In this document: one piece after another, positions 10,271-32,000 of the stretch | How the letters are laid out: the number at the start of each line of letters is the position of its first letter | Position numbering within the stretch: position 1 is the first letter of the stretch | Source: Sedimentisphaera cyanobacteriorum | GTDB taxonomy: Bacteria; Planctomycetota; Phycisphaerae; Sedimentisphaerales; Sedimentisphaeraceae | Assembly (NCBI RefSeq): GCF_001997385.1 | Contig: NZ_CP019633.1 | Location: 1,590,001-1,622,000 of the forward strand | DNA length: 32,000 nucleotides | Direction of reading: 5' to 3' | Position numbers and translations under genes: made by a program | The notes under the pieces: generated by a model | What the model was told of the DNA's origin: nothing | The model's input: only the letters and a program-made list of their open reading frames with translations | The model's database searches: none

Positions 10271-10272
10271 AT

Positions 10273-14365: not shown

Positions 14366-14369
14366 TTTT

Positions 14370-16265
14370 CTACATCCCAATTACTGCGTTAAATTTACAA
14401 GCTTCTGCGCACGCTCCGCATTTGATGCACTTATCCTGATCGATTACGTGGGGCTGCTTTTTCTCGCCCTCAATCGCATCTACCGGACATTTCTTCTTGC
14501 AGAGCCCGCAGCCGATACATTTCTCCGGATCGATCTCAGGCATTGCGAAGGCCTTGCACTGCCCTGCCGGGCATTTCCCGTGCACTACGTGAGCGGTATA
14601 TTCATCGCGGAAGTATTTCAGCGTAGTAAGCACGGGGTTAGGTGCGGTTTTCCCGAGGCCGCAAAGCGAGCCTTTGGATACCGCGCTTGCCACCCTTTCG
14701 AGCAGGTCGATCGTTTCCAGTGTTGCCCTTGCCTCGATGATATCCTCAAGGAGCCTGAGCATCTGTTTTGTACCCTCTCGGCACGGGACGCACTTTCCGC
14801 AGGATTCGTTCTGCGTAAACTGCATAAAGAAGTGCGCAATCTGCACCATACAGGTTTTCTTGTTCATCACCACAAGCCCGCCTGAGCCCACCATTGCACC
14901 GATATTCCGCAGGTTGTCGTAATCTATAGGCAGATCGAGGTGTTCTTCTGTGAGGCAGCCGCCTGAAGGGCCTCCGCACTGAACGGCCTTGAAGCCGTCT
15001 TCGAATATATTCCCGTCGTCGTCTGTTACGCCGCCTCCGATGCCGAATACAATCTCTCGCAGAGTTAGGCCGAAGGGCACTTCGATAAGACCGGTATTTG
15101 CAACGTGGCCGGTGAGAGCGAAAGTCTTCGTGCCCGCTGAGTTCTCCGTACCCATAGACTTGAAATACTCTGCCCCGTGCTGGATTATCAGCGGAACTGT
15201 TGCGAGCGTTTCCACATTGTTAATGCAGGTTGGCCTGCCCCAGAGCCCGCTTTGTGCGGGAAATGGAGGCTTTGGATTCGGCATACCCCTGCGCCCTTCA
15301 ATGGAAGCGATGAGGGCTGTTTCCTCGCCACAGACAAATGCGCCGGCTCCTTCAAGCACCTTTATCTTAAGGCTCTCTCCAGTGCCGAATACATCATCGC
15401 CCAATATGCCCAGAGCCTCGGCATCTCTTACCGCCTCGCTGACCCTGCTTACGGCAAGCGGATACTCCGCACGAACATAAACATAGGCCTCATCTGCTCC
15501 GATAGCCCTTGCAGCAATCATCATCCCTTCTAACACTCGGTGCGGATTGCCTTCCATAAGGCTTCTGTCCATAAAAGCGCCCGGATCGCCTTCGTCGCCG
15601 TTGCAGATTACATATTTCTTCTCGCCGGGCTGGGGGAGAGTGAGCGCCCATTTTTTCCCTGTGGGGAATCCGCCCCCGCCTCTGCCTCGCAGACCAGATT
15701 CGAGAACTTCATCATATATCTGCTGAGGCTGCATCTGTGTAAACGCTTTTCTCGCTGCGAAGTATCCCTCATGTGAGATATACTCTTCTATATTGCAGGC
15801 ATCAATCTTGCCGCACTCATCGAGAACCGTACGTTTCTGCCTTGTATAAAAGGGGATGTCCTTGGTGGTTTTGCAGGTGTTTCCGGTAGCCGGATCGGAG
15901 TATAGAAGTCTTTCCACAGGCTTATCATCAGCTACTGAGGATTCAACAATTTCAGCAGCATCCTCCGGCTTCACCCGCACATAATGATATTCCTGCGGAC
16001 GCACCGTTACCAGCGGCCCAACCTGACAGAACCCGCGGCAGCCTGTTTTGGCCATAACCACATCAGCATCCTTATCAGATTCGAGCTTTACCGAAACGTT
16101 TAAGTCTTTCTTTTCCACCTGCTCTTTTATAGCCTCAAAGACCTTCAAAGACCCGTTTGCAACGCAGGCCGTACCTGCGCAGACCACAATCTGCCTCTGG
16201 GTTTTCTCAAGGGCTTTGAGGTAGTTTTCTTTTATTGATTCCAAATTTACGGTTGCCGCAATCAT
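14370..16265 (-). CDS. hydB: Hydrogenase NADH-binding flavoprotein subunit HydB (NuoF-like)
   Basis: N-terminal thioredoxin-like module (CAGTACVANG...GCRGFCQVGP), FMN/NADH region GLRGRGGGGFPTGKKW and the NuoF cluster ESCGKCVPCREG. C-terminal 2x[4Fe-4S] ferredoxin motifs are CIGCGLCKKKCP and CIKCGACAEAC. Its start overlaps the hydC stop (TGATG at 16263-16267). Confidence 0.95.
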   Translation of the reverse strand: MIAATVNLESIKENYLKALEKTQRQIVVCAGTACVANGSLKVFEAIKEQVEKKDLNVSVKLESDKDADVVMAKTGCRGFCQVGPLVTVRPQEYHYVRVKPEDAAEIVESSVADDKPVERLLYSDPATGNTCKTTKDIPFYTRQKRTVLDECGKIDACNIEEYISHEGYFAARKAFTQMQPQQIYDEVLESGLRGRGGGGFPTGKKWALTLPQPGEKKYVICNGDEGDPGAFMDRSLMEGNPHRVLEGMMIAARAIGADEAYVYVRAEYPLAVSRVSEAVRDAEALGILGDDVFGTGESLKIKVLEGAGAFVCGEETALIASIEGRRGMPNPKPPFPAQSGLWGRPTCINNVETLATVPLIIQHGAEYFKSMGTENSAGTKTFALTGHVANTGLIEVPFGLTLREIVFGIGGGVTDDDGNIFEDGFKAVQCGGPSGGCLTEEHLDLPIDYDNLRNIGAMVGSGGLVVMNKKTCMVQIAHFFMQFTQNESCGKCVPCREGTKQMLRLLEDIIEARATLETIDLLERVASAVSKGSLCGLGKTAPNPVLTTLKYFRDEYTAHVVHGKCPAGQCKAFAMPEIDPEKCIGCGLCKKKCPVDAIEGEKKQPHVIDQDKCIKCGACAEACKFNAVIGM

Positions 16266-16762
16266 CAGGCCTTCTCCTTTTCAAGAATTTCTTCGATAAG
16301 ATTTCCCGCCTTCTCCGGCGTTACAAGCCCGTAAACATCTTCGTTTATAGTAATCACCGGAGCCATCCCGCATGCACCGAGACAGCTGACAGTTTCCACT
16401 GTAAAAAGCTGGTCGTCTGTTGTGCATTTTTCCTTGTCAAGGCCGAGCTTTCCCTGCATTGCCTCAAGGATCGCTATCGAGCCCTTTACATGGCAGGCTG
16501 TTCCGTCGCATACATGGATTACATACTTGCCTTTCGGCTCAAGTGCGAAGTGTGCGTAAAAACTTGCCACTCCATAAACCTTTGCCGGCGGCATTTTCAG
16601 ACTTGTTGCAATATATGTTAAAATTTCTTCCGGCAGATACCTGTACTCCCTCTGCACTGCGTGGAGTATTGGTATGAGATTTGATTTGTCTGCCTGATGT
16701 TCTTCAAGTATCCGGCAAACCTTCTCAAACTTCTGCTTTTTACAGGCTTCACAAGACATCAA
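16265..16762 (-). CDS. hydC: Hydrogenase [2Fe-2S] subunit HydC (NuoE-like)
   Basis: 165 aa with the NuoE pattern YVIHVCDGTACHVKG...VSCLGACGMAPVITINE. Confidence 0.93.
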   Translation of the reverse strand: MMSCEACKKQKFEKVCRILEEHQADKSNLIPILHAVQREYRYLPEEILTYIATSLKMPPAKVYGVASFYAHFALEPKGKYVIHVCDGTACHVKGSIAILEAMQGKLGLDKEKCTTDDQLFTVETVSCLGACGMAPVITINEDVYGLVTPEKAGNLIEEILEKEKA

Positions 16763-16804
16763 TATTTCCTTTATTCAATTATCACTAAACTACTTCTTTT
16801 ACTC

Positions 16805-17998
16805 TTATATCAGCTCCATATCAGAGCTTTTTAAATGCTTGTTATTGAGCGTATCAACAATTTCTCTGAGCATATTTCTTCTAATATCCAAAGACGCCGG
16901 CAAGTTCGGGTCCTGGTGGGCTTCGTTAATCTTCGTTCCCACGATAAAATGTATGCTGTCGCTCTCGAGCAGGTATTCCACTAATTTTTCAGCGGGATTT
17001 TTTGCAGGCGGGTCAATTTCGCCTCTGCTTTTTAGCAGTTCAAGCGCCCTGCTCAACGTTACCGTACCCTCAGTAACCAGCTCTGCGCCTTCCATCTTAG
17101 AGGCCGGAGGGATATAGGGATCGGTCCAGCTGAGGTCTATCTTCACATCCCTTTTCGTCTGATTTGCGATAATCCTCGCAGTTGTTCCTCCGCAGACAAG
17201 CTTTCTTCCGCTGAACTCTTCAAACTTTGAAGCGAGCAGGCCGTCATTGCTCTGATTGTACGGAGGGCCTGTTATCACAAGCGTTCTGCGGGGATGCCTG
17301 AAAGAGATTACTGCTGCGCTTATATCGTCTTTGGCTTTATTGCCGTCGTTCTTCAGAGCCCTTTCAACAATCCTGCGGGCAAGCTTCCTCGCTGAAACAG
17401 ATTCTAACCCGCCCAGCTGAGCGGTTATATATTCCTCAGCTCCCTGAGATGTCCAGCCAAGAGGCATAGAGTCTGTTCCCATCCCGGACTGGGTAACGCC
17501 GTCGCTGCAGAAAAAAAGCTTATCACCTTTGACCGCATCAAAGCTTGTATATTTGAGCTCTCTCTGTCCTGCTGAGCCGGCATCTATCCTGTGGCTGCTT
17601 CTTTCCAGCTCAATCTTTCTGCCGTTCCTGAGAAGAAGGCAGCAGGGATTGTCATATTCAATTATCCGCACCCGCCCCTCATAACTCACATCAACTATGG
17701 TGAAAGTGGAATACCCCACTTTCCGAACGCTGCATACCGGCAGAGTGGCCATAATGATCTCTGAGGCGCGCTTGAGATCTATATCGCTCTTGATGTAGTT
17801 CATTGCCATCGTAGAGGTTAGGGTAGCAAGGACGTTGGCCTTAATCCCGCTTCCGAGCCCGTCAGCGAGTATGCAGATAGTTCTCTGGCCGTCTTCTGTC
17901 CTGCTGGAATAAAAAACATCGCCGGGAGAGCCCATACCTTCCTTGCTCTTCTGGAAAGAGCCGACCTCTACGAAGAAATCATTCTTTGTGAGCATCAT
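16805..17998 (-). CDS. PP2C/SpoIIE-family Ser/Thr phosphatase with a conserved ~160-aa C-terminal domain of unknown function
   Basis: PPM motifs SPGDVF, ILADGLGSGIKA, FFCSDGVTQSG and KDDISAAVISF. These are followed by VCGGTTARIIA, VTEGTVTLSRA and IVGTKINEAHQ. The ATG ATG start overlaps the hydS stop by 20 nt and AGGGG sits just upstream. Confidence 0.85.
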   Translation of the reverse strand: MMLTKNDFFVEVGSFQKSKEGMGSPGDVFYSSRTEDGQRTICILADGLGSGIKANVLATLTSTMAMNYIKSDIDLKRASEIIMATLPVCSVRKVGYSTFTIVDVSYEGRVRIIEYDNPCCLLLRNGRKIELERSSHRIDAGSAGQRELKYTSFDAVKGDKLFFCSDGVTQSGMGTDSMPLGWTSQGAEEYITAQLGGLESVSARKLARRIVERALKNDGNKAKDDISAAVISFRHPRRTLVITGPPYNQSNDGLLASKFEEFSGRKLVCGGTTARIIANQTKRDVKIDLSWTDPYIPPASKMEGAELVTEGTVTLSRALELLKSRGEIDPPAKNPAEKLVEYLLESDSIHFIVGTKINEAHQDPNLPASLDIRRNMLREIVDTLNNKHLKSSDMELI

Positions 17999-19739
17999 TG
18001 CCCCTTTCGCTCTCTTCGCTGCCTGTCTGGAAAGACTCTACAATAGAATTGAGAATCACCTCTGAGTCAGAAGCATTCTCCCCGAGAAGATAGGCAATCT
18101 GCTGAACAGTCTGAAGGTTTTTCTCTATAACGTTTTTCGCCTTGTTTATTATCTGCTCCTTGGCGACTGCCGGAGCGGTAATATCCTGCAGAAACGCACC
18201 TGCGAGCCTTCCCTGCTCGATAGTGAAAACGGTAATATGCAGAACGGCGTTATTGAGCTTTATGTCCTTCTCGATAACCTGCTCACGGCTCTCTATTGCC
18301 CTTCGAAACATCTCAGCGCTGGGCAGGAGTTTTTCGATTTTTGCCTTCTCCAGCCCGGGAATCTGAGCGTACAGCTCTTCGGTATCGCTTCCAAGCATAG
18401 AGGCAAAACGCCTGTTAGACTCTACCACCTCAAGCTTCTCATCCACAATCACTACCCCGCCGGGCATTGTTTTGATAAGCATATCGGCCTTCTTATGGGC
18501 GAGCTGACGCATATAGCTTACGCACATACTCTCCTCCGCCCTGCCTTCAAGAAGCGCCTCGGCAAACTGCCTGCAGGAATCATACCCGCAGCCGCTGCAG
18601 TTGAGCTCGTCCTCGGGGCGGTATTTGCCAACACGCTCAAGGGCTTCTCTTATCTTATGCTCGGGATATTTCTTTTCTTCCTTCGGGTCGGGGCTGAAGC
18701 TGGCAGTTATATCGATGCCAGGCTTTCTGGGTATATTTTCCTTTTCATATTCGCTGCCTGACAAAACATCAAGCCGTTTTAATGCGCTGCTCTTTCCGCT
18801 CTGGGCTGCCGGGCCGTTAACGCATCCGCCGTCGCAGGAGAGCAGTTCGAGGAATACAGGCTTATCGGGCTTGAAATTCTCGAGCCCTTCAAGAACCTGC
18901 ATTATATTATCCATTCCGGAGAATGTCATATAGCCTGCATCAGTAACATCGCAGTTGGCCTTGATGCCTGCTATCATCCCGCCGTCTACGGGATAGAGAC
19001 TGCCCTCTGCCGCCCTCTGCGGAACAAACGCATCCCCGGTCTTATCGGGCTCAAGAGCTGCCTGGTCAATCTCTTCATCCATAAGCCACTGCTTCAGGTC
19101 TTGGAAGGTTATCGCAACATCCAGAAGGCCTTCTGAGGTGTCCGATTCCTTCTTCTTGCCTATGCAGGGGCCTGCAAAGACGATCCCAATATCCTCCCCG
19201 TATTCCTTGCGGAGCATCTTGCAGTGCGCAAGAAGGGGCGAGAGAATGCCTGTAATGCTGCCTGCAAGCTGAGGCATATATTTAAGCACATACTCAACCA
19301 CGGTAGGACAGGCGCTTGAGATGTAAACGCCGGGGCTGCCTTCGGCGAGTATTTCCGCAGTATTTGCAGAAACTTCCTGCGCCCCGAGAGCGGTCTCTGA
19401 AACGCCCGCAAAGCCGAGCTTCTTAACCGCTGCTATGAGCTTGTCCTCGCTGCCTTCAAACTCCGCCCTCCAGCTGGGAGCTATAGACATATATACCTTT
19501 TCTCTGCTTTTCAGCAGAAGGCGTGCCCTCTGGAGGTCGTTTCGTATCTTTTTTGCGCCTGCCGGGCAGGTTCGAACGCACGTACCGCACATAATGCAGC
19601 TGTCGTTCATTATCCTTGCGTGGCCGTCCTGTATCTGTATCGATTTTACAGGGCATCGGCGCAGGCACTTGTAGCAGTCCTGGCATTCCGCTGCCTGAGT
19701 GTAAACTGGTTCCATAAAATCCATACTATACCCTTTCAA
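17979..19739 (-). CDS. hydS: Sensory-type [FeFe]-hydrogenase homologue HydS (ferredoxin domain, H-domain, 4-Cys motif, PAS)
   Basis: N-terminal CQDCYKCLRRCP and CIMCGTCVRTCP. Degenerate H-cluster motifs ISSACP (versus TSCCP), GPCIGKKKE and ELLSCDGGCVNGP. Extra cluster motif CSGCGYDSCRQFAEALLEGRAEESMC. PAS-like C-terminus (GGVVIVDEKLEVVESNRRFASMLG ... ITVFTIEQGRLAGAFLQDITAP). Confidence 0.88.
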   Translation of the reverse strand: MKGYSMDFMEPVYTQAAECQDCYKCLRRCPVKSIQIQDGHARIMNDSCIMCGTCVRTCPAGAKKIRNDLQRARLLLKSREKVYMSIAPSWRAEFEGSEDKLIAAVKKLGFAGVSETALGAQEVSANTAEILAEGSPGVYISSACPTVVEYVLKYMPQLAGSITGILSPLLAHCKMLRKEYGEDIGIVFAGPCIGKKKESDTSEGLLDVAITFQDLKQWLMDEEIDQAALEPDKTGDAFVPQRAAEGSLYPVDGGMIAGIKANCDVTDAGYMTFSGMDNIMQVLEGLENFKPDKPVFLELLSCDGGCVNGPAAQSGKSSALKRLDVLSGSEYEKENIPRKPGIDITASFSPDPKEEKKYPEHKIREALERVGKYRPEDELNCSGCGYDSCRQFAEALLEGRAEESMCVSYMRQLAHKKADMLIKTMPGGVVIVDEKLEVVESNRRFASMLGSDTEELYAQIPGLEKAKIEKLLPSAEMFRRAIESREQVIEKDIKLNNAVLHITVFTIEQGRLAGAFLQDITAPAVAKEQIINKAKNVIEKNLQTVQQIAYLLGENASDSEVILNSIVESFQTGSEESERGNDAHKE

Positions 19740-19748
19740 AGCCGCTGG

Positions 19749-20012
19749 TCAGTTTATTATGCCCTTTTCTCTCAGATGGATTCTGATAAGGTCTAAAACT
19801 GATTCTGGCTTAATATCATCATACTCTTTATCATCAATCGTAATGTGAGGGCCGCTGCTGCATTTACCCTCGCAAAGGCTCCCTGAAAGCTCAATGCTCT
19901 GTTCAAGATTGTTTTCAGAGATATACTCTTTGATGAGCTCTATGGCCTTATTATTCCCGCGTGTAAAGCAGGAGCTTCCCATACAGAGCCTTATTTTCAC
20001 TTTTCCGTTCAT
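19749..20012 (-). CDS. Small thioredoxin-like [2Fe-2S] ferredoxin
   Basis: Likely start is MNGKVKIRLCMGSSCFTRGNNK at 20012, giving an ATGA overlap with the rex stop. The ORF-track start at 20090 lies inside rex. Cys pattern C-x4-C ... C-x3-C (CMGSSC ... CEGKC), as in NuoE-type modules. 87 aa. Confidence 0.75.
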   Translation of the reverse strand: MNGKVKIRLCMGSSCFTRGNNKAIELIKEYISENNLEQSIELSGSLCEGKCSSGPHITIDDKEYDDIKPESVLDLIRIHLREKGIIN

Positions 20013-20680
20013 ACATTTGCACCGCTGAATTCCTCTGCCGATTCTTCGTTCTTCTCTCGAAGCCTGCTTGAGAGAACCGCAAGCGAACATTCAAGCTCCA
20101 CCCGCTCAACGATTATGTGCTCGGGAATATCCAGACGGACAGATGTAAAGTTCCAGATTGCCTCAATCCCAGATTCCACCATATACCCTGCCACCTGCTG
20201 AGCCCTGTTCTGCGGGACGGTAAGCACGCCTATTTTTATATGCAGCCTTTCTAACAGATCGGGGAATTTCTCAAGGCTGAAAATTTTCTTCCCGCTGATC
20301 TCTTTGCCGATTTTGTTTTTATCAACATCAAAGCCGGCAACTATATTCAGCCCCCGCTCGCGGAATCCTTCGTATCCCATAAGAGCCACCCCGAGATTGC
20401 CGCAGCCTACGAGAAAGGCATCTCTGCTGTTGTTCCAGCCGAGAAAGTCCTCAAGGTGTTTGATCAGGCCGGCAATATTAAAGCCTACTCCGGACTGCCC
20501 GGAAATGCCTGTGGCCGAGAGGTCTTTGCGAACCTGAATAGCCTCAAGATGCAATGCACGTGCTATATACGCGCTGCTGATATTTTCGTGCCCCTCTTCC
20601 AATGCCTGCCTGAGTATATGCAGATATGAGGGAAGCCTCTTGATTGTGGGCAGTGAAACTGATGAAACTTTCATAATCAT
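20009..20680 (-). CDS. rex: Redox-sensing transcriptional repressor Rex
   Basis: N-terminal winged-helix LPTIKRLPSYLHILRQ and ISSAYIARALHLEAIQVRKDLS. Rossmann motif FLVGCGNLGVALMGY. The tail region GIEAIWNFTSVRLDIP is also present. Confidence 0.92.
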   Translation of the reverse strand: MIMKVSSVSLPTIKRLPSYLHILRQALEEGHENISSAYIARALHLEAIQVRKDLSATGISGQSGVGFNIAGLIKHLEDFLGWNNSRDAFLVGCGNLGVALMGYEGFRERGLNIVAGFDVDKNKIGKEISGKKIFSLEKFPDLLERLHIKIGVLTVPQNRAQQVAGYMVESGIEAIWNFTSVRLDIPEHIIVERVELECSLAVLSSRLREKNEESAEEFSGANV

Positions 20681-20704: not shown

Positions 20705-20725
20705 ATATCGATATTTTTTTATCGA
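20705..20725. promoter_or_regulatory. Palindromic element in the rex leader
   Basis: ATATCGATAT (20705-20714) is a perfect 10-bp palindrome. TCGATA (20708-20713), six T residues, then TATCGA (20720-20725) form a second inverted repeat. The element lies at or just downstream of the predicted transcription start. Confidence 0.3.
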
Positions 20726-24053: not shown

Positions 24054-25544
24054 TTATTCAAATTCAATTTCAACACTATCAATCATTGGCTTTGAGGGGT
24101 TTTCTGTTGTATCTTCAAGTTTGAATTCAAAGCAGAAACCGTAAGCTGGAGGAAGGAAGCTAATATCCATACTCGCATTCCTGCGTTCTATCCGCTTTGC
24201 AAAACCCTCGATATAGTCATAGTTTTCCTTTACTTCCTGCCACTTAGTCCAGAGTTCGGCCTCACCATCATTGTCAGTATCAGCCCCAACTCTGGCTGTT
24301 ACTTTCTCAACCCACGGTCCGGGACTCACATAATCTGTATCCATCTGCGTTACGAGATAGAACTGACCTTCCGCAAAACAAATATCCGGATCAGGATGCC
24401 CCTTTCCAATATTCCCGCACCACTGGAACTTCTTATTCAGCGAATCAGAAGTAAACCAGCAAACACTCATATCATGGCCGCCGACGGGATCAAAATCACC
24501 AAAAAGATAATACTGCTCACCAATACTAATCATCGCCCAGTCGCCGTAGGCTTCCTGTTCCGGCTTGTGGACGTTGTATTTAGCTGCATTGCTTTTCCAG
24601 TCCGGATGCTGAAGCCAGTGAGGATGCTTATACTCGCCAACTTTGCCTGTAGGCTTGGTGCGATTATCAACAGCAAAATCCAGTATCTCAAAATCAGTGA
24701 TCCCGTTTTTACTCACGGCGTGCCCTGCCAGAGGCGAATCCCACGAATGTTTAGAGGCATTTATCGGGCTCCAGTCTTCATAGATCACATGGAAACTCCC
24801 TTCTTTATCACGGAAAAACGCACAATCGGAACCGTCAGAAGGGTCTGCAAAAGCGAGCCCCATATTCTTCCCGGGTTCGCCGTCGGTGAGATCGTCATCA
24901 ATGTAAAGATGCGGGTCCTGGTCGTTTGGGTAGTCGTAATAGATGTAAGCCTTCCCGTCAGAATATTCTGCTGTTGTAACCCACCGAGAAAAATGTTTGG
25001 TAACAGGCCCGTGATGTACCCAGTTTTTCATATCCCTGCTCTGCCATGCGTGATATCCGCCAAAACCCTTTTTAAGACCGCCCGGGGCGTTGTACACATT
25101 TGGAAGCGGTGTAGTTTTCAGAGGAACATCAAAACCATCAAGAGAAGCAGCTTCCGCTTTAAAGCTGTCCTCACCTTTAATTTTAACATACTGCCCAAAC
25201 ATCCAATAGTTGTCCTGTCCAAGAATAAGCATAACAGGTGCATTATGAAAATTATCAGGGCCAAGATTTTTTACAGGCTTCCAGTTCTCCCAAACCGCTG
25301 ACTGAGATATTGTGATAGACTTAGCAGACATCTTTTTATCGAAGCGCTTCACCTTGCTTGTGTAATAACCTTTTTCAATGGACGGGCAAACTGTGTCATC
25401 TTCAAAATATATCGCGCTGTATGCCTTTCGAAGCTGCTTCCACTGCTTTTTAGTTTCTACTTTCCAACTGTCAGCTTTAACGAAATTATTAAACAGCAAA
25501 ACGAATGCCGCTAAAAATAAACTTTTATAAATTAAATATTTCAT
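24054..25544 (-). CDS. Secreted protein, possibly a beta-propeller glycoside hydrolase (GH43-like); family not established
   Basis: Signal peptide MKYLIYKSLFLAAFVLLFNNFVKA. Recurrent propeller-like patterns are present (HAWQSRDMKNWVHHGP, SDCAFFRDKEGSFHVIY, GDWAMISIGEQYYLFGD, PDICFAEGQFYLV). The assignment rests on pattern only. Confidence 0.45.
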   Translation of the reverse strand: MKYLIYKSLFLAAFVLLFNNFVKADSWKVETKKQWKQLRKAYSAIYFEDDTVCPSIEKGYYTSKVKRFDKKMSAKSITISQSAVWENWKPVKNLGPDNFHNAPVMLILGQDNYWMFGQYVKIKGEDSFKAEAASLDGFDVPLKTTPLPNVYNAPGGLKKGFGGYHAWQSRDMKNWVHHGPVTKHFSRWVTTAEYSDGKAYIYYDYPNDQDPHLYIDDDLTDGEPGKNMGLAFADPSDGSDCAFFRDKEGSFHVIYEDWSPINASKHSWDSPLAGHAVSKNGITDFEILDFAVDNRTKPTGKVGEYKHPHWLQHPDWKSNAAKYNVHKPEQEAYGDWAMISIGEQYYLFGDFDPVGGHDMSVCWFTSDSLNKKFQWCGNIGKGHPDPDICFAEGQFYLVTQMDTDYVSPGPWVEKVTARVGADTDNDGEAELWTKWQEVKENYDYIEGFAKRIERRNASMDISFLPPAYGFCFEFKLEDTTENPSKPMIDSVEIEFE

Positions 25545-25608: not shown

Positions 25609-26733
25609 CTACTTTGGGAAACCATTTTTCCTGATATATTCACCAACTTTATGCAGCGTATTTACGTCCTGCTTGTCAAGAGAGCCGTCAGGGAGAGGCC
25701 CTGTATTCAACAGGAGATTAGCATCATAATCAGCAGCATATTTCAAATTATCCAGCACAGAATCAAAACCTCTGTGATTGCCGTCATGTTTTTTGGTATA
25801 TCCCCAGCCGGCAATAGCGGTGCATATCTCAAAAGGCTTTCCGGCTGCCTGTTTTTTCTTTACCTTTTCCTTATCTTTGAGCCAGTGAATCTCAGGGGAA
25901 TAATAATCCTCTTGACCATTGTAGCCCCATTTTGATGTAATCAAACATTGGGGCTGGAGTTTCCGGATAAGCTTGTATGTATCATCAACTCGAAACTTCT
26001 CAATAGGCCCGCTCATAGGAACGCCATGCCCATCAAGCCAAATGCTGGCAATTGGGCCGTATTGAGTAAGCAGCTCATTAATCTGCTGGTGCATATACTC
26101 TATATAAATATCTAAATCGTGCTCCTTGCCGTATTTGTAATACAGCTCAGGCTCATAATACTTCGGGCGTGCAAAGCTTCCCCATTTATCATTATTTGGA
26201 GCATGCGGATGACGCCAATCCCTTCCGTGAGAAAAATAAAGACATAACCCAAGCCCCTTTTTCTCGCAGGCTTCGGCCAGCTCGGCAACAAGATCTCTTT
26301 TTGCTGGCGATTTAACACTGTTGAAATCGGTCGATTTTGTATCAAACAAACAAAAACTGTCGTGATGGCGAGTTGTAATATTCACATACTTCATTTCAGC
26401 GCGAAGAGCCAGATCAGTGATTTCATCAGCATCAAAGTTTTCAGCAGTAAAGAGTTCAATAAGCTTCTCATACTCTTTAACATGTATTTTCTCCTTAATC
26501 TGAACCCATTCCCCCCGTCCAAGCAGACTGTAAAGCCCGTAATGAAGGAAAAGGCCAAACTTTGCTGCTCTAAACCAATCCATTGAAGAAGAATGAGGTT
26601 TGGCAGAGTAATCCTGAGCAAAACCTTTTAAATATGAAGGTGCTGAAGAATTAAACTGACCTGTAGAAAATGCCGGCAAACCTATTAGCCCGGCAGCACC
26701 CATTATTTTGGTAAATTCGCGCCTGTTTAGCAT
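25609..26733 (-). CDS. TAT-exported alpha-L-fucosidase (GH29), catalytic domain only
   Basis: Twin-arginine signal MLNRREFTKIMGAAGLIGLPAFS. GH29 signatures WFRAAKFGLFLHYGLYS and ITTRHHDSFCLFD. Confidence 0.88.
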   Translation of the reverse strand: MLNRREFTKIMGAAGLIGLPAFSTGQFNSSAPSYLKGFAQDYSAKPHSSSMDWFRAAKFGLFLHYGLYSLLGRGEWVQIKEKIHVKEYEKLIELFTAENFDADEITDLALRAEMKYVNITTRHHDSFCLFDTKSTDFNSVKSPAKRDLVAELAEACEKKGLGLCLYFSHGRDWRHPHAPNNDKWGSFARPKYYEPELYYKYGKEHDLDIYIEYMHQQINELLTQYGPIASIWLDGHGVPMSGPIEKFRVDDTYKLIRKLQPQCLITSKWGYNGQEDYYSPEIHWLKDKEKVKKKQAAGKPFEICTAIAGWGYTKKHDGNHRGFDSVLDNLKYAADYDANLLLNTGPLPDGSLDKQDVNTLHKVGEYIRKNGFPK

Positions 26734-27042
26734 TTAGTATTTTCCCTATGAAATACAAAAGAAATAGCAATTCAATCTGTTTACTGTTATATTATATATC
26801 GTAATCCAGTGTATTTTTTTTGCAGCCATTTTTTTGCTTTTTTTTGCTTCACAATAAAGGCAAATACGATTATGCAAGATCATTTCTGTAGATTATTTTT
26901 CATTGAATCTGGATAATCCCCTTAATCAGACCCGTGCAAGAAGTCCGCCAGAGGCGGATGTAACAAATGAACAGCAGATTCCCATTACACCCAACTATCA
27001 GCTTTTGCGATATATAATGTCGAGGCAAGTGTAATTTATTTT

Positions 27043-27061
27043 TTGTTCAAAAATTTCACAA
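27043..27061. promoter_or_regulatory. Rex-operator-like site (imperfect)
   Basis: The sequence is TTGTTCA-AAAAT-TTCACAA. The right arm is a perfect TTCACAA. The left arm matches TTGTGAA at 5 of 7 positions. The spacer is 5 nt rather than the canonical 4. The site ends 5 nt before the -35 hexamer. Confidence 0.3.
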
Positions 27062-27066
27062 AAGGC

Positions 27067-27095
27067 TTGACATTGCGGCCGGATATTGATATATT
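27067..27095 (+). promoter_or_regulatory. Near-consensus sigma70 promoter of the hydS2 cassette
   Basis: TTGACA (27067-27072), a 17-nt spacer, then TATATT (27090-27095). The hydS2 ATG at 27126 is ~25 nt past the predicted start site. Confidence 0.6.
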
Positions 27096-27125
27096 TTTAT
27101 CAAAGTTAAGACAAAGGCCGAAACA

Positions 27126-28853
27126 ATGCAGGAATTAAAACCAATATACACAATAACCACGGACTGTCAGGACTGCTACAAATGCCTTCGGGAATGCCCG
27201 GTGAAGGCGGTGAAGGTATCCTCGGGCAGTGCGAGCGTTGTTCATGAGCTCTGCATAAGCTGCGGGCACTGCCTTAACGTATGCCCGCAGGGTGCAAAGA
27301 GATACCGCAGAGATATTCAGTTCGCCGCAAACACGATATCTAAATACAAGGCTTTGGGCAGGAAAGTGGCTGCTTCTGTTGCGCCGAGCTTTATCTCCGA
27401 ATTTTCTGATCTGCCGGTTTCAAGCTTTATCAAGGCCGTTAAGATGCTTGGCTTTGATATAGTATCAGAAACCGCGCTTGGTGCGGAGCAGGTCTCCGCT
27501 GCCACGGTGAAACACCTCCGCGATGAGAAGCCGGATGTATGCATATCCTCTGCCTGCCCTGTGACGGTAGAGTTTATAAAGAAGTATTACCCGTCTCAGG
27601 GCGAAAGTATAGCCCCGCTGTTCTCACCCCTGCTGGTGCACTGCCGAATGCTCAAGCAGATTTACGGCGAGGATACATCAGTTGTATTCATTGGGCCTTG
27701 TGCAGGCAAGAAGCTGGAGGCCGATTCAAACCCCGAACTGCTCAGCGCTGCGATAACGTTTGAAGAGCTCAGGGGCTGGTTTGAGGCTGAGGGTATAAAC
27801 CCGGAGCATATATCTGAAAATATGGAACGATTCAGCCCGAACAGGGCAGCGAACGGGGCATTGTACCCGGTAGAGGGCGGAATGCTCTCTGGGATAAAGC
27901 ACGGGTGCAGCTCAATTGAGAGCAGTTATGCGTCGTTTTCAGGGATTGAAAATATGCGAAAGGTTATGGAAGACCTTGAGAACAACGAGCCCCCTGCCCC
28001 GCTTTTTCTTGAACTTCTCGCCTGCGAAGGCGGCTGCATAAACGGCCCGCTGGTTTCAGACAAAAAGAAGCTTCTCTCAGGGAGGGCAAGCGTTTTGAAA
28101 TATGCAAACTACCGCAAAGAGAGTATCACAGCAAGCACGAAAGTGGAAACAAGGGGCGAATACAGGATTGAACCGGTAATACCTGCAGAGCACCGACCCG
28201 CTCAGATAAAGCAGGCTCTTGAAAAGGTGGGCAAATACAGCACCGAAGATGAATTAAACTGCGGCTGCTGCGGCTATGATACATGCAGGAATTTCGCTGG
28301 CGCTATGCTCAGCGGAAAGGCCGAACCCTCAATGTGCGTAGGTAATATGCGGAAGATAGCTGCAAGCAAGCTCGACAGCGTTATAAGCGCCCTGCCCTGC
28401 GGGATAATCATCGCAGATTCTGGCAGCAGGGTTGTGGAAAGCAACAGGAAATTTGCAGAGCTTATGGGCGAAGACAATCTCGCTGTTTACGAAAGCTGCG
28501 GCGGGCTGAACGGTGCATCCCTTGAGAAGGTAGTCCCGTTCGACTACTACTTCCAGCAGGTAATCAAGAAAGAAAACGGATTTATAGAAAAGGAAATCAG
28601 CAGTGAAACGGGCGTTCTGAATGTGCAGATTTTCACGATAGAGCAGAATCAGCTGGCAGGCTGCATAGCGCAGGATATAACTGAGCCGGCAGTTGAAAAA
28701 GAGCACATCATCGGCAAGGCGCAGGAAGTGATGGACCAAAACCTCGATACAGTAAAGAAAATAGCCCATCTGCTGGGGGAAAACGCCGCAGCATCGGAGG
28801 ACATACTAAACTCTATAATCAAGAACTTCAGGAAAACGGGGGTGAAAAAATAG
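27126..28853 (+). CDS. hydS: Second sensory-type [FeFe]-hydrogenase homologue (HydS paralogue, PAS-containing)
   Basis: Colinear with the 17979-19739 protein. Motifs: CQDCYKCLRECP, CISCGHCLNVCP, ISSACP (27546-27560), GPCAGKKLE, ELLACEGGCINGP, CGCCGYDTCRNFAGAMLSGKAEPSMC, and PAS-like GIIIADSGSRVVESNRKFAELMG. Confidence 0.88.
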   Translation: MQELKPIYTITTDCQDCYKCLRECPVKAVKVSSGSASVVHELCISCGHCLNVCPQGAKRYRRDIQFAANTISKYKALGRKVAASVAPSFISEFSDLPVSSFIKAVKMLGFDIVSETALGAEQVSAATVKHLRDEKPDVCISSACPVTVEFIKKYYPSQGESIAPLFSPLLVHCRMLKQIYGEDTSVVFIGPCAGKKLEADSNPELLSAAITFEELRGWFEAEGINPEHISENMERFSPNRAANGALYPVEGGMLSGIKHGCSSIESSYASFSGIENMRKVMEDLENNEPPAPLFLELLACEGGCINGPLVSDKKKLLSGRASVLKYANYRKESITASTKVETRGEYRIEPVIPAEHRPAQIKQALEKVGKYSTEDELNCGCCGYDTCRNFAGAMLSGKAEPSMCVGNMRKIAASKLDSVISALPCGIIIADSGSRVVESNRKFAELMGEDNLAVYESCGGLNGASLEKVVPFDYYFQQVIKKENGFIEKEISSETGVLNVQIFTIEQNQLAGCIAQDITEPAVEKEHIIGKAQEVMDQNLDTVKKIAHLLGENAAASEDILNSIIKNFRKTGVKK

Positions 28854-28924
28854 CGCTGGCGGAGAATTTCATAGAGATAGACCACTATCAGGCTCTCAAG
28901 CACGGCCAAAGGCTCTGCGGAGAT

Positions 28925-30034
28925 GTGGTGGAGAAGCTGCGCCTCGAGGATCAGGGAAGGGTGATCACTGCCCTTTGCGACGGCCTCGGGTCGGGCGTGA
29001 AGGCGCACATACTCTCAACGCTGACATCAACAATCGCCACGCACTTTGCAGCCTCAGAATCCAACCTCAGGCGATATGCAGAAATTATAAGCCAGATCCT
29101 GCCGGAATGCAGCGAGAGGAATCTGGGCTATTCCACGTTTACAATTTCAGATATCGATTCGAGCGGACGCAATAAGCTGATAGAGTTTGACAACCCCTCT
29201 GCGATTCTCATAAGAAACGGCAGAATCGAGAGGATAAAGCGCAGGAAAGTTTCAGTAAAATACGGCAAACTCGGCAGCAGAGAGGTTTTCCAGAGCGTAA
29301 TCGATATGCAAAGAGGCGACAGGCTTGCAATCTGCAGCGACGGGGTAACAGAATCAGGCAGAGGCGAAAAAGGTATGCAGTGGGGCTGGGAGGAAGAAAA
29401 TCTTGCGAAATTCTGCGCTGGGATATGCAGCGAAAACAAAGGGCTTTCTGCAAGACAGATGGCAAAGAATATCGTAGAAGCAGCGATAAGAAACGAAGGC
29501 GGGAAGTGCAGTGATGATGCAACGGCTCTTGTGATAAACCTCAGAAGGCCGAAGAAGACACTGCTGGTAACCGGGCCGCCCTCTCAAAGAAAATTCGATG
29601 CATACATCACAGACAGGCTGAAAAATTTCCTCGGGACTAAAATTATCTGCGGCGGAACAACAGCAAAAATAATTGCTGACAAGCTCGGAAGACCTCTGCA
29701 TACACACCCGGCAAACATCGGGGAAGGCCTTCCTCCTGCATCTGAGATTGAAGGGGTAGATCTGGTTACAGAAGGCATACTCACGCTCTCAAAGCTCGAG
29801 GATATGCTTGATACTGCAGGCAGCGGAAGAGCAGAAAACACGCCGGCAGGGGCTTTAATGGAGCTTCTGCTTGAATCGGACATAATAACACTTATAGTAG
29901 GCACGAAAATCAATCAAACCCATCACAATCCGGATTTTCCGATTGATGTAGAGATCCGCAGGAATCTCGCCCGAAGACTGAAGAGGGTGCTTGAGAAAAA
30001 TTATTTGAAGAAAGTTGAGATAGAGCTGGTATGA
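28925..30034 (+). CDS. Second PP2C/SpoIIE-family phosphatase with the same C-terminal domain; the true 5' end lies upstream of the called GTG
   Basis: Motifs ALCDGLGSGVKA, AICSDGVTESG and SDDATALVINL, then ICGGTTAKIIA, VTEGILTLSKL and IVGTKINQTHH. The same frame upstream encodes (K)IALAENFIEIDHYQALKHGQRLCGD. This aligns to the paralogue N-terminus and contains PPM motif I (GD). No ATG, GTG or TTG exists there. Confidence 0.8.
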   Translation: MVEKLRLEDQGRVITALCDGLGSGVKAHILSTLTSTIATHFAASESNLRRYAEIISQILPECSERNLGYSTFTISDIDSSGRNKLIEFDNPSAILIRNGRIERIKRRKVSVKYGKLGSREVFQSVIDMQRGDRLAICSDGVTESGRGEKGMQWGWEEENLAKFCAGICSENKGLSARQMAKNIVEAAIRNEGGKCSDDATALVINLRRPKKTLLVTGPPSQRKFDAYITDRLKNFLGTKIICGGTTAKIIADKLGRPLHTHPANIGEGLPPASEIEGVDLVTEGILTLSKLEDMLDTAGSGRAENTPAGALMELLLESDIITLIVGTKINQTHHNPDFPIDVEIRRNLARRLKRVLEKNYLKKVEIELV

Positions 30035-30288
30035 AAAAAATATTAGTTGAAATATGCACGGGTACAACCTGCCATGTAATGGGTTCAGAGGCGATTATGG
30101 AAATACGGGATATGCTCGCAAGCCGCTTTAAAGATATTGTGGAAATAAAGGCCACAAGCTGCATCGGGCTATGCAGGGAAAGGAATGCTGAGCAGGCTCC
30201 TTTTGTTAAGGTCAACGGGAGGGTCGTTCCCGAGGCGAACCTGCTGAGAGTAACTCAGATGATAAACGAAATAGAGAGGGGCGATTAG
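30031..30288 (+). CDS. Small thioredoxin-like [2Fe-2S] ferredoxin (paralogue of 19749-20012)
   Basis: ATGA overlap with the PP2C2 stop. 85 aa with CTGTTCHVMG ... SCIGLCRERN (C-x4-C ... C-x3-C). The next gene starts immediately after its TAG. Confidence 0.75.
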   Translation: MKKILVEICTGTTCHVMGSEAIMEIRDMLASRFKDIVEIKATSCIGLCRERNAEQAPFVKVNGRVVPEANLLRVTQMINEIERGD

Positions 30289-31710
30289 ATGCTCTCAGAC
30301 AACAACGCCAGCAGGATAGTAAAGAAGCTGCTCGTAGAGACTGCCCGCTTAAGCCTTGAGGAAAACCTCGAGGAGGAGATAGACCGGCTTGTTATCAATA
30401 TGATTCCCAAAAACAGCGCCGCAAACCGGTGCTGCGTGCATAAAGACCGAGCAGTGATAAAATACCGTCTAATGGCAATCTTAGGCCGCAGCATTGAAGA
30501 TGAACAAGACGAGCTCAAGCCCTTGAGCGAATACGCCAAGGAAACTCTCAATCGAGAGAAGATAACAGAGCCCGTGCTTACTGTCATAGATGAGGCCTGC
30601 AGTGCGTGCCCTTCTGGGAGGCATTTTGTAACAAACGTATGCAGAGGCTGCGTTGCGAGGCCTTGTATGGTAAACTGCCCGAAAGATGCCATCGAAATTC
30701 ACAACGGCAGAGCGGAAATCGATGAAGACAGATGCGTAAATTGCGGGATATGCCTGAAGGTATGCCCATACAACGCTATAGTTGAGATCCCCGTGCCCTG
30801 CGAGAGTGCCTGCCCTGTAGGGGCGATAAGCAAAGACCAGAGCGGGAAGGAGAAGATCGACTATTCAAAATGCATCTTCTGCGGCAGATGTATGACCTCG
30901 TGCCCGTTTGGAGCAATTATGGAACGCTCGCAGATTATTGATGTTGCCAAAAAGCTTGCGGAAGGGCGAAGGGTTGCTGCGCTTACAGCCCCCTCGGCTG
31001 CAGGCCAGTTCCCCTGCGATTTCAAACAGCTTAAAGGGGCGATCCTCAAGGCGGGATTCGGCGAGGTGCTGGAGGTGGCCGAAGGGGCAGATATAACAGC
31101 GAAAAAAGAAGCTGAGGAGTTCGAAGAAAAAATCAGAGAAGGACAGAAGTTTATGACATCAAGCTGCTGCCCTGTTTACAAAGAAGCTGCCAAAAAACAC
31201 ATCCCCGAACTGTGGGAGTTTATATCTGATACGCCAACTCCTATGGAATTTGCAGGACGCAGGGCAAAGGCAGACAGTCCCGACTGCATTACGGTATTTA
31301 TAGGCCCCTGCATCGCTAAAAGACAGGAGGCTCTAGAGGGCAGCTCTATCGACCACGTACTAACCTGCGAGGAGCTGGGGGCGATTTTGGTGGCCAAGGA
31401 TATATTCGTACGTGAAACAAACCACGCTGAAACGCTCGGGTCAGCCAGCATTGAGGCGAGAAAATTTGCAGTCTCAGGCGGGGTTACCAACGCCGTGAAA
31501 ACGCACCTTTCCGGCAGCACAGAAATAAAACCGGAGCTTATAGACGGGCTGGACAAAAAAAACATCAAAAAACTCTCTGATATGTGCAAAGCAAACACAG
31601 ATGCCAACTTTGTGGAAGTGATGAACTGCAAAGGCGGTTGTGTAGGCGGGCCGGGAAATCTCAGCTCACCTGCAAGGGCTGCAAAGAGGATTGAAAAATC
31701 ATTCGAATAA
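30289..31710 (+). CDS. Monomeric [FeFe]-hydrogenase, group-B-like (N-terminal helical region, three ferredoxin-type cluster motifs, H-domain)
   Basis: Cluster motifs: CSACPSGRHFVTNVCRGCVARPCMVNCP, CVNCGICLKVCP, CESACP and CIFCGRCMTSCP. H-cluster motifs retain both cysteines: MTSSCCPVY, IGPCIAKRQE and EVMNCKGGCVGGPG. 473 aa. Confidence 0.85.
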   Translation: MLSDNNASRIVKKLLVETARLSLEENLEEEIDRLVINMIPKNSAANRCCVHKDRAVIKYRLMAILGRSIEDEQDELKPLSEYAKETLNREKITEPVLTVIDEACSACPSGRHFVTNVCRGCVARPCMVNCPKDAIEIHNGRAEIDEDRCVNCGICLKVCPYNAIVEIPVPCESACPVGAISKDQSGKEKIDYSKCIFCGRCMTSCPFGAIMERSQIIDVAKKLAEGRRVAALTAPSAAGQFPCDFKQLKGAILKAGFGEVLEVAEGADITAKKEAEEFEEKIREGQKFMTSSCCPVYKEAAKKHIPELWEFISDTPTPMEFAGRRAKADSPDCITVFIGPCIAKRQEALEGSSIDHVLTCEELGAILVAKDIFVRETNHAETLGSASIEARKFAVSGGVTNAVKTHLSGSTEIKPELIDGLDKKNIKKLSDMCKANTDANFVEVMNCKGGCVGGPGNLSSPARAAKRIEKSFE

Positions 31711-31743
31711 TAAAAACTCTTAACCTGCCCATTAACAGCAAAA

Positions 31744-31817
31744 CAGCACTGAGATATTTCAGCCGCTGAGCAGCGCTGAGATATTTCAGCCACTGAGAAA
31801 CGCTAAGATGCGCTAAG
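31744..31817. repeat. Tandem 27-bp repeat and phased heptamer array C(A/G)CT(G/A)AG
   Basis: CAGCACTGAGATATTTCAGCCGCTGAG (31744-31770) is followed directly by CAGCGCTGAGATATTTCAGCCACTGAG (31771-31797), with 2 mismatches. Heptamers occur at 31747, 31764, 31774, 31791, 31801 and 31811, giving spacings of 17, 10, 17, 10 and 10 nt. A T7 run follows at 31820-31826. Confidence 0.85.
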
Positions 31818-32000
31818 GATTTTTTTAGACAGGGCTTTATAGGTTCAAGGCAATGATAAGGCAGAAGTTTTTACTCCTGCAGCTGCCGCTGACCCGAGTC
31901 CACCTCGTCCACCTTGTCCGGCAGATAATCTTCCATGATTTTTCACTGATGATTTTGATTGCGCGAATTGCTAACATTTTATAACTCTTCTGTTTAAATT

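Follow-up and report, generated by a model that had tools for sequence, protein, structure and literature searches.

The planctomycete Sedimentisphaera cyanobacteriorum, of the Phycisphaerae, carries, within the 32,000 nucleotides of contig NZ_CP019633.1 analysed here (hereafter, the window), two gene sets in which a putative sensory [FeFe] hydrogenase of the HydS type and a PP2C phosphatase adjoin genes for a hydrogenase. The set on the forward strand, namely, hydS2, pp2c2, fdx2 and a gene for a 473-residue hydrogenase, is the subject of this work and is referred to as cassette 2, and the other set, which includes rex, fdx1, hydS1, pp2c1 and the genes of a HydABC enzyme, as cassette 1. Which kind of system is cassette 2, and how did it come to stand in the same genome as cassette 1? 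The original prediction, made from the letters of the sequence, held that sensor, phosphatase and ferredoxin form a portable module that was duplicated and plugged onto two hydrogenase classes. We favour, with a probability of about 0.7, a different reading, in which cassette 2 is one operon of an already known kind, where a group C3 sensor, a PP2C and a fermentative hydrogenase go together. Its relatives would be hfsABCD of Thermoanaerobacterium and, in Ruminococcus albus, the hydS-hydA2 cluster.

Gene content of cassette 2

The features of cassette 2, numbered from the first position of the window, are the following.

27038-27063, forward strand: upstream element TTTTTTGTTCAAAAATTTCACAAAA, immediately before the -35 box; identical in S. 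salicampi
27067-27095, forward strand: sigma-70-like promoter TTGACA-17-TATATT with an extended TG; 11/12 consensus positions
27086-27103, forward strand: putative Rex-type operator TTGATATATTTTTATCAA (TYGATA-N6-TATCRA), over the -10 box and the presumed start of transcription
27126-28853, forward strand: hydS2, putative H2-sensing [FeFe] hydrogenase of group C3 / M2f type by its Pfam domains, 575 residues
28850-30034, forward strand: pp2c2, SpoIIE/RsbU-type PP2C with a family-specific C-terminal alpha/beta domain; proposed 394 residues from ATA 28850
30031-30288, forward strand: fdx2, 85-residue thioredoxin-like [2Fe-2S] protein; PF01257
30289-31710, forward strand: group B (B1) [FeFe] hydrogenase, 473 residues; TIGR04105
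31744-31797, forward strand: two tandem repeats of 27 nucleotides (nt), 34 nt past the hydrogenase stop; possible operon end

The four open reading frames (ORFs) sit where the original prediction had put them, and the ORF list and Pfam agree on this. The hydS2 stop is overlapped by the proposed pp2c2 start (ATA/TAG), pp2c2 and fdx2 overlap in an ATGA, and the hydrogenase ATG abuts the fdx2 TAG; the latter two junctions, also predicted, can be read in the sequence. The hydS2 promoter is the best site between 26600 and 32000 and is conserved in S. salicampi, as are the ~25 nt of TTTTTTGTTCAAAAATTTCACAAAA, a candidate site for a second regulator; flanking DNA farther upstream can no longer be aligned. 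This arrangement shows four translationally coupled genes driven by a strong predicted promoter, that is, one operon. The repeats behind it are 93% identical and each holds a GCTGA...TCAGC inverted repeat (a short hairpin); they could serve as a terminator or represent a repeat element. A scan of the operon region found no canonical intrinsic terminator on the forward strand, and an Rfam scan of 26600-32000 returned no RNA family.

HydS2 matches Fer4, Fe_hyd_lg_C (E 5.6e-44) and PF04060 FeS (36.3 bits, cutoff 23) in Pfam. Three sets of its cysteines are invariant in an alignment of the HydS family: C14, C17, C20, C24, C43, C46, C49 and C53 for two N-terminal [4Fe-4S] clusters; Cys144, Cys192, Cys300 and Cys304 for the H-cluster, as aligned to HydA of cassette 1; and C379, C382, C387 and C404, which make up the cluster motif Cx2Cx4Cx16C. 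At the position of the proton-relay Cys (Cys299), both HydS1 and HydS2 carry an Ala within the motif ISSACP, and the relay positions E279 and E282 are not acidic in HydS2, the relay glutamates being missing from HydS1 as well in the alignment with HydA. Unconserved Cys299 and relay glutamates, together with Cx2Cx4Cx16C, are features of group C/M2f sensors (PMC8163306), and an adjacent Ser/Thr phosphatase defines sensor subtype C3 in HydDB (PMC5037454). In 78 of 80 HydS loci, drawn among the matches listed in species genomes of many phyla (a sample, not a census) and annotated by BLAST with the window's proteins, PP2C lies directly downstream of the sensor, as it does, overlapping the stop codon, behind hydS2. 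Judged by its residues, HydS2 has the full set of cofactor ligands known from sensory [FeFe] hydrogenases and no proton relay, and we regard it as a putative H2 sensor of group C3 / M2f type. The motifs and classes stated in the original prediction are correct, the four-Cys motif being directly readable and the PAS match being a weak one. The PAS region aligns to that of HydS1, whose own PAS-family matches fall below the cutoffs, and to homologues with recorded PAS-family matches.

At the other end of the operon, the 473-residue protein matches TIGR04105 (FeFe_hydrog_B1, 'monomeric [FeFe] hydrogenase, B1') with 530.8 bits (cutoff 450) over residues 4-460 and profile positions 2-461 of 462, which confirms the predicted group-B-type class. 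Several Fer4 motifs precede its H-domain; in Pfam searches, the N-terminal 120 residues matched nothing above threshold and no C-terminal domain like that of a small subunit was found. The enzyme has the motifs TSSCCP, GPCIAKRQE and EVMNCKGGCVGGPG, and EVMNCKGGC aligned with HydA. On proper alignment with HydA, the window's group A3 enzyme, all four H-cluster cysteines are kept, as the original prediction had expected, the proton-relay Cys is kept too, and the relay positions are Glu, Glu, Lys and Thr. The family shows no variation at C293, C294, C341, C447 and C451 or at 18 accessory cysteines. By these residues, the last gene is shown to encode a catalytically complete group B1 hydrogenase. 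Its TSSCCP is found in 14/96 members of the family and TTSCCP in 66/96, and the enzyme lacks the extra Cys of the TSCCCP of CpIII; on this motif, the B1 family with its TSSCCP/TTSCCP stands apart from group B enzymes of CpIII type, and TIGR04105 membership is unaffected. In S. cyanobacteriorum the protein is annotated 'Iron hydrogenase 1' (100% identical), and the JGI label of homologues is 'group B1/B3'. Neighbour-joining (NJ) trees, here and below with 100 bootstraps, group it with planctomycete B1 enzymes (loci L004 and L086) at 99%, and thus the hydrogenase looks vertically inherited. We know of no settled physiological role for group B [FeFe] hydrogenases.

The small protein encoded in front of the hydrogenase, Fdx2, matches PF01257 with 32.8 bits (cutoff 24.8), with C9, C14, C44 and C48 as ligands (C-x4-C ... 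C-x3-C). An Fdx2-type gene lies between phosphatase and hydrogenase in all 20 B1-linked HydS loci and in none of the 21 closely HydABC-linked ones. Eighty B1-centred loci, drawn among the matches listed in metagenomes and likewise a sample rather than a census, divide into 34 sensor-linked, 31 stand-alone and 15 that are too short, so that 34 of the 65 informative loci are sensor-linked; Fdx2 is present in 33/34 of the former and 0/31 of the stand-alone loci. Sensor-linked and stand-alone enzymes are intermixed on the B1 tree, and Fdx2, by this distribution, tracks the sensor-controlled form of the enzyme. The group B hydrogenase probably has Fdx2 as its partner or small subunit, as the distribution of Fdx2 and an archaeal analogue discussed below suggest. 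Such close co-conservation with the enzyme casts doubt on the word 'monomeric' in the original prediction.

PP2C2 matches PF07228 SpoIIE (75.9 bits, cutoff 25), its residues D25, D44, D164, D222 and D223 are invariant in an alignment of the PP2C family, and its top Foldseek matches are SpoIIE, RsbU and RsbX (3pu9, 5mqh and 5ucg, at E 1e-15 to 1e-13). The ORF caller starts this protein at GTG 28925, the first canonical start, which gives 369 residues. The frame is open upstream of it to ATA 28850 and encodes IALAENFIEIDHYQALKHGQRLCGD, matching the N-termini of homologues, and sequence and model together make ATA 28850, not GTG 28925, the most likely start, for the following reasons. First, homologues have 390-400 residues, and the only database entries with 368, three of Sedimentisphaera type, are without the invariant Gly-Asp. 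Second, the in-frame codons 5' of the GTG encode the conserved FIEIDHYQALKHGQRLCGD, including a G24-D25 that is invariant across 67 PP2C family members, and a protein begun at GTG 28925 would be missing D25. Third, the AlphaFold2 (AF2) model, whose predicted local distance difference test score (pLDDT) is 87.9, builds two strands of the PP2C sandwich from residues 7-32. Fourth, the ATA aligns with an ATG, since the start site reads ATGA in L082 (start over stop), ATAG in the window and ATAA in S. salicampi, and in L084 the stop is followed after 5 nt by an in-frame ATA (sites compared: window 28845-28925; L081 8556-8640; L084 635-733; L082 2204). Fifth, the 19 conserved codons upstream of the GTG differ from S. 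salicampi by three changes, all synonymous. A G-rich, Shine-Dalgarno-like run precedes ATA 28850, and -1 slippage within the terminal A6 run of hydS2 may yield a HydS2-PP2C2 fusion.

The C-terminal ~160 residues of PP2C2 (29537-30031, residues 230-394) are modelled as a confident alpha/beta domain (AF2 pLDDT 86) with an invariant CGGTT loop, and the same region is present in PP2C1. The best PDB matches of the domain are generic Rossmann-/flavodoxin-like folds with a template modelling (TM) score <0.45. A whole-library search gave 809 representatives, nearly all full-length matches being the ~390-residue PP2C fusion itself, and thus offered no functional lead. The GGTT loop had suggested a fused STAS-like phospho-acceptor; this idea found no support, there being no significant PDB match.

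A putative Rex-type operator and the proposed circuit

The aligned hydS2 leaders of the Sedimentisphaera relatives share a conserved palindrome, TTGATA-N6-TATCAA. Searched as TYGATA-N6-TATCRA (18 bp, one mismatch allowed), it has two matches in the window, where ~0.28 would be expected by chance: one at 27086-27103, over the hydS2 -10 box, and one at 20708-20725, in front of rex. Exact matches number 24 in the 2.26 Mb of fetched loci (165 loci), and 16 of them precede a rex gene at a distance of 3-138 nt, the phyla being Planctomycetota, Spirochaetota, Cloacimonadota, Fibrobacterota, Lentisphaerota and Bacillota. Among the others, three are at hydS2-type genes (L081, L082 and L083), one is upstream of hydC and one upstream of adhE. 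This recurrence in front of both rex genes and hydS2 is what would be expected if the box were a Rex operator under autoregulation, and we refer to it as a putative one. The original prediction noted that cassette 2 has no rex; this is literally true, since no rex gene is found in or next to it, but a putative Rex-type operator is present.

The classical Rex consensus, reportedly published by Ravcheev et al. in 2012 as the 18-bp TTGTGAA-N4-TTCACAA, was tried as well. It gave 3-mismatch matches only, none of them at rex, and was replaced by the empirical TYGATA-N6-TATCRA; TTTTTTGTTCAAAAATTTCACAAAA likewise has 3 mismatches to it at best.

Cassette 2 is best described, from its predicted genes and sites, as a putatively Rex-box-controlled, hfs-like operon for an H2 sensor, a phosphatase and a two-component (Fdx2 + B1) ferredoxin-dependent hydrogenase. 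In such a circuit, HydS2 would report the H2 level to PP2C2 via its H-cluster, the C-terminal [4Fe-4S] cluster and the PAS region, and PP2C2 would dephosphorylate some target, tuning production or activity of the hydrogenase, in which Fdx2 would serve as the electron-entry subunit. Rex from cassette 1 would repress cassette 2 in trans via the putative operator over the -10 region, which would make expression sensitive to NADH/NAD+ as well as to H2. To our knowledge, the route by which group C sensory [FeFe] hydrogenases put out their signal is not known in the field.

Several observations weigh against this description. The PAS region of HydS2 matches PAS_8 only, at E 0.0037, which is below the Pfam cutoff, and no gene for a kinase or a phosphoprotein substrate lies within the operon. 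For the C-terminal domains of both PP2C paralogues, Pfam found nothing above threshold and one sub-threshold TackOD1 match, and the AF2 model of the PP2C2 domain has no PDB match with E <1e-3. The operator is carried by 11-16 of the 28 sampled rex genes; it resembles but differs from the classical Rex consensus, and it is assigned to Rex by position only. The enzyme of the related R. albus cluster is classed as group A1 (PMC6776011), whereas that of cassette 2 is B1. Lastly, Fdx2 occurs only where the sensor does, which fits a regulatory role as well as a structural one.

Such a role could take the form of a physical link between sensor module and enzyme, in which PP2C, or HydS itself, would act through Fdx2 to control the entry of electrons into the hydrogenase at the post-translational level, instead of or besides acting on transcription. 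We consider this unlikely. If it were true, Sedimentisphaera, with one Fdx1-containing and one Fdx1-less module per cell, would lend itself naturally to telling apart what Fdx1 and Fdx2 do.

It is also improbable that HydS2, Fdx2 and the B1 enzyme make up a single multi-subunit 'Hfs-type' hydrogenase complex, in line with the first description of hfsABCD, with HydS2 acting mainly in electron transfer or catalysis and the PP2C as an accessory regulator. The translational coupling of the genes and the strict association of Fdx2 with sensor-linked B1 would suit this arrangement; moreover, TmHydS and TamHydS keep a low catalytic activity (PMC8163306), and the Lynd group has raised the possibility of a functional HfsABC hydrogenase without HfsD (PMC13277313). 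However, Cys299, Glu279 and Glu282 of the proton relay are absent from HydS2, Fdx1-HydS-PP2C is also found beside HydABC or beside no hydrogenase (16 loci, some with HydE/HydF maturases only), and hydrogenase activity goes up, not down, when hfsB is deleted (PMC5707799). We retain the sensor-phosphatase operon as the preferred reading of cassette 2.

Origin of cassette 2 and its surroundings

In the 80 HydS loci, the neighbouring hydrogenase is HydABC in 30 (21 close, 9 further away), B1 in 20 and both in one, 16 loci have none and 13 are truncated; a conserved linkage to hydrogenase genes elsewhere, on which the original prediction relied, is thereby supported. Two main layouts occur, namely, Rex-(HydCBA)-Fdx1-HydS-PP2C-(HydCBA) and [Rex]-Fdx1-HydS-PP2C-Fdx2-B1. 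The layout of cassette 2, which has neither rex nor fdx1, is shared by S. salicampi and two more distant relatives (L081-L083) and is kept in relatives down to 56% HydS identity; L084, a short contig missing the upstream part, has the same PP2C-Fdx2-B1 order. Anaerohalosphaera lusitana, which belongs to the same taxonomic order, has the full Rex-Fdx1-HydS-PP2C-Fdx2-B1 (L085, 2782-6466), with a divergent bifunctional adhE beside rex. The intergenic region between these two genes holds a TYGATA-N6-TATCRA box, an echo of the adhE linkage in R. albus.

Since B1 cassettes elsewhere carry an Fdx1-type gene before the sensor in 19/20 loci in addition to the ever-present Fdx2, cassette 2 is, by gene content, the common B1 cassette minus rex and fdx1, and not a rearranged trio. 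The Sedimentisphaeraceae cassette would be a derived form of the widespread Rex-Fdx1-HydS-PP2C-Fdx2-B1, and in the genus Sedimentisphaera the phosphatase ATG would have been replaced by ATA. The lineage-specific traits of cassette 2 in these comparisons are the lack of rex and fdx1, the probable ATA start and a faster evolution, its genes having higher nonsynonymous divergence (dN) from S. salicampi than those of cassette 1.

HydS clusters mainly by taxon on the NJ tree, and not by partner hydrogenase. A HydABC-linked and a B1-linked locus (L001 and L004) are sisters with 100% bootstrap for HydS and 99% for PP2C, and therefore partner switching among close relatives is real. To this extent the portable module of the original prediction stands, as the sensor-phosphatase pair does adjoin different hydrogenase classes, both in this sister pair and across the 80 loci; what finds no support is an Fdx copied as part of a trio, or a recent duplication.

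An in-genome duplication of the Fdx-HydS-PP2C trio, followed by movement of the ferredoxin gene behind the phosphatase and by plugging of the copy onto a second hydrogenase, is very unlikely. HydS and PP2C are colinear paralogues, both small proteins match PF01257, and HydS2 stands beside a planctomycete HydS1-type clade on the NJ tree, all of which speak for it. However, the HydS2 clade (window, L081, L082 and L083; 100% support, long branch) is placed there with 32% bootstrap only, and PP2C2, also on a long branch, has no supported placement; the NJ phylogenies, of the kind proposed as a check on recent duplication, have deep nodes with little or no support. Aligned end to end, HydS1 and HydS2 are 47% identical and PP2C1 and PP2C2 43%, which makes them as diverged as orthologues from other phyla; thus the paralogues, at this level of identity, come from no recent duplication, and the sensor pair is old and fast-evolving. 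Fdx1 and Fdx2 share only 20% identity. Hidden Markov models (HMMs) built for both families from the two sets of the 80 HydS loci separate every member with a margin of 56 bits or more; of the proteins in the window, Fdx2 scores 106 bits with the Fdx2 model and 28 with that of Fdx1, and Fdx1, conversely, 111 against 37. By this separation, the two are distinct families and Fdx2 is no relocated Fdx1. Cassette 2 is therefore not 'permuted', as the original prediction had it: a small [2Fe-2S] gene does follow the phosphatase instead of preceding the sensor, but it is a member of another family and not the counterpart of fdx1. Nor did a maximum-sensitivity hmmsearch with the Fdx1 HMM in six frames of 26500-27200 find a remnant of fdx1 upstream of hydS2. 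Finally, the two cassettes are 1.9 Mb apart in S. salicampi, so their proximity in this window has no conserved meaning.

Hardly credible is a decay of the regulatory half of cassette 2 that would leave only the hydrogenase of importance: rex, fdx1 and the canonical PP2C start are gone, HydS2 and PP2C2 sit on long branches with raised dN, and three Sedimentisphaera-type PP2C sequences are annotated as N-terminally truncated, but all cofactor ligands and invariant PP2C residues are kept, the codons upstream of the GTG have changed only synonymously, the layout is conserved in relatives, and the ratios of nonsynonymous to synonymous divergence (dN/dS) from S. salicampi are 0.065 for HydS2 and 0.085 for PP2C2, similar to those of HydS1 (0.062) and PP2C1 (0.048). 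With 0.141 for Fdx2, 0.074 for the B1 enzyme and a range of 0.03-0.16 for all eleven genes of both cassettes, purifying selection acts on every gene and nothing is decaying.

Other arrangements were encountered in the survey. A second and far more divergent HydS-like/PP2C pair, at 30-35% identity, stands in tandem with the first in Riflebacteria/Marinilabiliales loci L038 (14647-17500), L057 (14652-17500), L039, L044, L053 and L056; double sensor modules, as far as these gene pairs tell, are not unique to Sedimentisphaera. The Riflebacteria locus L057 (4280-14600) reads Rex-HydCBA-Fdx1-HydS-PP2C-Fdx2-B1, with one sensor module flanked by both hydrogenase classes. In two deltaproteobacterial metagenome-assembled genomes, L003 (7165-12879) and L007 (7313-12897), Fdx1-HydS-PP2C follows hydF and a radical-SAM gene, probably hydE, and no catalytic hydrogenase lies within 10 kb.

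Cassette 1 lies on the opposite strand, 6.4 kb from cassette 2, as predicted, and its gene order recurs in the S. salicampi locus L166 and in L001, L019 and L029. Its features are as follows.

12347-20680, reverse strand: cassette 1, rex-fdx1-hydS1-pp2c1-hydC-hydB-hydA, by Pfam
20708-20725, reverse strand: operator TCGATAAAAAAATATCGA in front of rex, 28 nt before its ATG, directly downstream of a TTGAAA-16-TAAAAT promoter (20757-20730)
20009-20680, reverse strand: rex
19749-20012 (likely), reverse strand: fdx1
17979-19739, reverse strand: hydS1
16805-17998, reverse strand: pp2c1
16265-16762, reverse strand: hydC
14370-16265, reverse strand: hydB
12347-14380, reverse strand: hydA

The fdx1 ORF as called (19749-20090, reverse strand; 113 residues) overlaps rex by ~80 nt; the family consensus and the 87-residue S. 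salicampi orthologue place the real start at the internal Met27 (~20012), just past the rex stop. HydA has a C-terminal thioredoxin-like [2Fe-2S] domain at residues 591-666 (70 bits with the Fdx1 family HMM), and HydB an N-terminal one at residues 22-108, which brings the occurrences of this fold over both cassettes to five. The 6.4 kb between the cassettes hold fucosidase and lipase genes, and between the GDSL-lipase and fucosidase genes a 496-residue ORF (24054-25544, reverse strand) has no Pfam match. On the forward strand, 9029-10827 has 35% GC against ~46-51% around it and encodes an AAA_15/AbiEii-type ATPase and a 184-residue ORF without family; it resembles a small defence-type insertion, and S. 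salicampi has an AAA_15 gene at the corresponding place.

Comparison with known systems

Cassette 2 leaves the overall picture unchanged, as sensor-phosphatase operons on fermentative hydrogenases have already been described, and the idea of a portable sensor module is not new, being found in HydDB C3 (PMC5037454), in hfsABCD (PMC5707799) and in the work on Vallitalea and Elusimicrobium cited below. What it adds is a clean case in a cultured planctomycete, with two diverged, fully constrained sensor-phosphatase pairs, one on a bifurcating HydABC and one on a group B enzyme. The comparative by-products are perhaps more useful than the locus: two [2Fe-2S] families, one tied to the sensor and one confined to sensor-linked group B cassettes; a putative palindromic operator common to rex genes of many phyla and to the rex-less cassette 2; a PP2C-specific C-terminal domain without known relatives; and a probable non-AUG start of the phosphatase.

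A close parallel is hfsABCD of Thermoanaerobacterium saccharolyticum / T. thermosaccharolyticum, in which a PAS-bearing, HydS-like HfsB and the serine phosphatase HfsC precede the ferredoxin-linked HfsD (PMC5707799, PMC11837493). The B-, C- and D-like genes of both operons stand in the same order, a comparison made by gene order and description. Unlike cassette 2, in which no gene of the operon lies upstream of hydS2, hfs has a small HfsA before the sensor; cassette 2, in turn, has its small [2Fe-2S] gene between phosphatase and hydrogenase, and its host is a planctomycete instead of a firmicute. Deletion of hfsB or hfsA alters hydrogenase activity and adhE expression, and the genetics point to a regulatory role for HfsB (PMC5707799).

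At the level of single proteins, HydS2 shares with TmHydS of Thermotoga maritima, a characterised group C (M2f) sensor, a domain order of two N-terminal [4Fe-4S] clusters, an H-domain without Cys299, Cx2Cx4Cx16C and a (in HydS2 putative) PAS region, as well as a Gly for Met353 (PMC8163306, PMC10055695), and differs from it at the Met497 position, which is Leu in HydS2 and Ser in TmHydS; both TmHydS and TamHydS have sensor-like properties (PMC8163306, PMC10055695). The B1 enzyme resembles CpIII of Clostridium pasteurianum, a characterised enzyme that is also of group B, in having F-x-G-P-C in place of the M-P-C context of group A, and departs from its TSCCCP through the T[TS]SCCP of the family (PMC12138974). 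For Fdx2 as a subunit, the best precedent, by analogy, is the modelled HydA-HydC heterodimer of 'Ca. Prometheoarchaeum syntrophicum', in which the catalytic subunit is of group B and its small partner a thioredoxin-like [2Fe-2S] protein (PMC11216029). That system is archaeal, and no sensor or phosphatase is reported in its cluster.

A group B gene just downstream of a C3 sensor has been reported in Vallitalea guaymasensis (PMC6163223) and Elusimicrobium minutum (bioRxiv 10.1101/765248), papers that describe the adjacency and do not analyse small ferredoxins, operator or phosphatase. In Ruminococcus albus 7, according to PMC6776011 and PMC10838669, which cite Zheng et al. (2014), the hydS-hydA2 cluster on pRumal01 has a group C sensor and a phosphatase co-transcribed with a ferredoxin-only hydrogenase and adhE, a separate HydABC is encoded elsewhere in the genome, and the sensor cluster is 90-111-fold down when H2 is kept low. 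S. cyanobacteriorum resembles it in this pairing of enzymes but differs in that each of its two hydrogenases has a sensor-phosphatase pair of its own.

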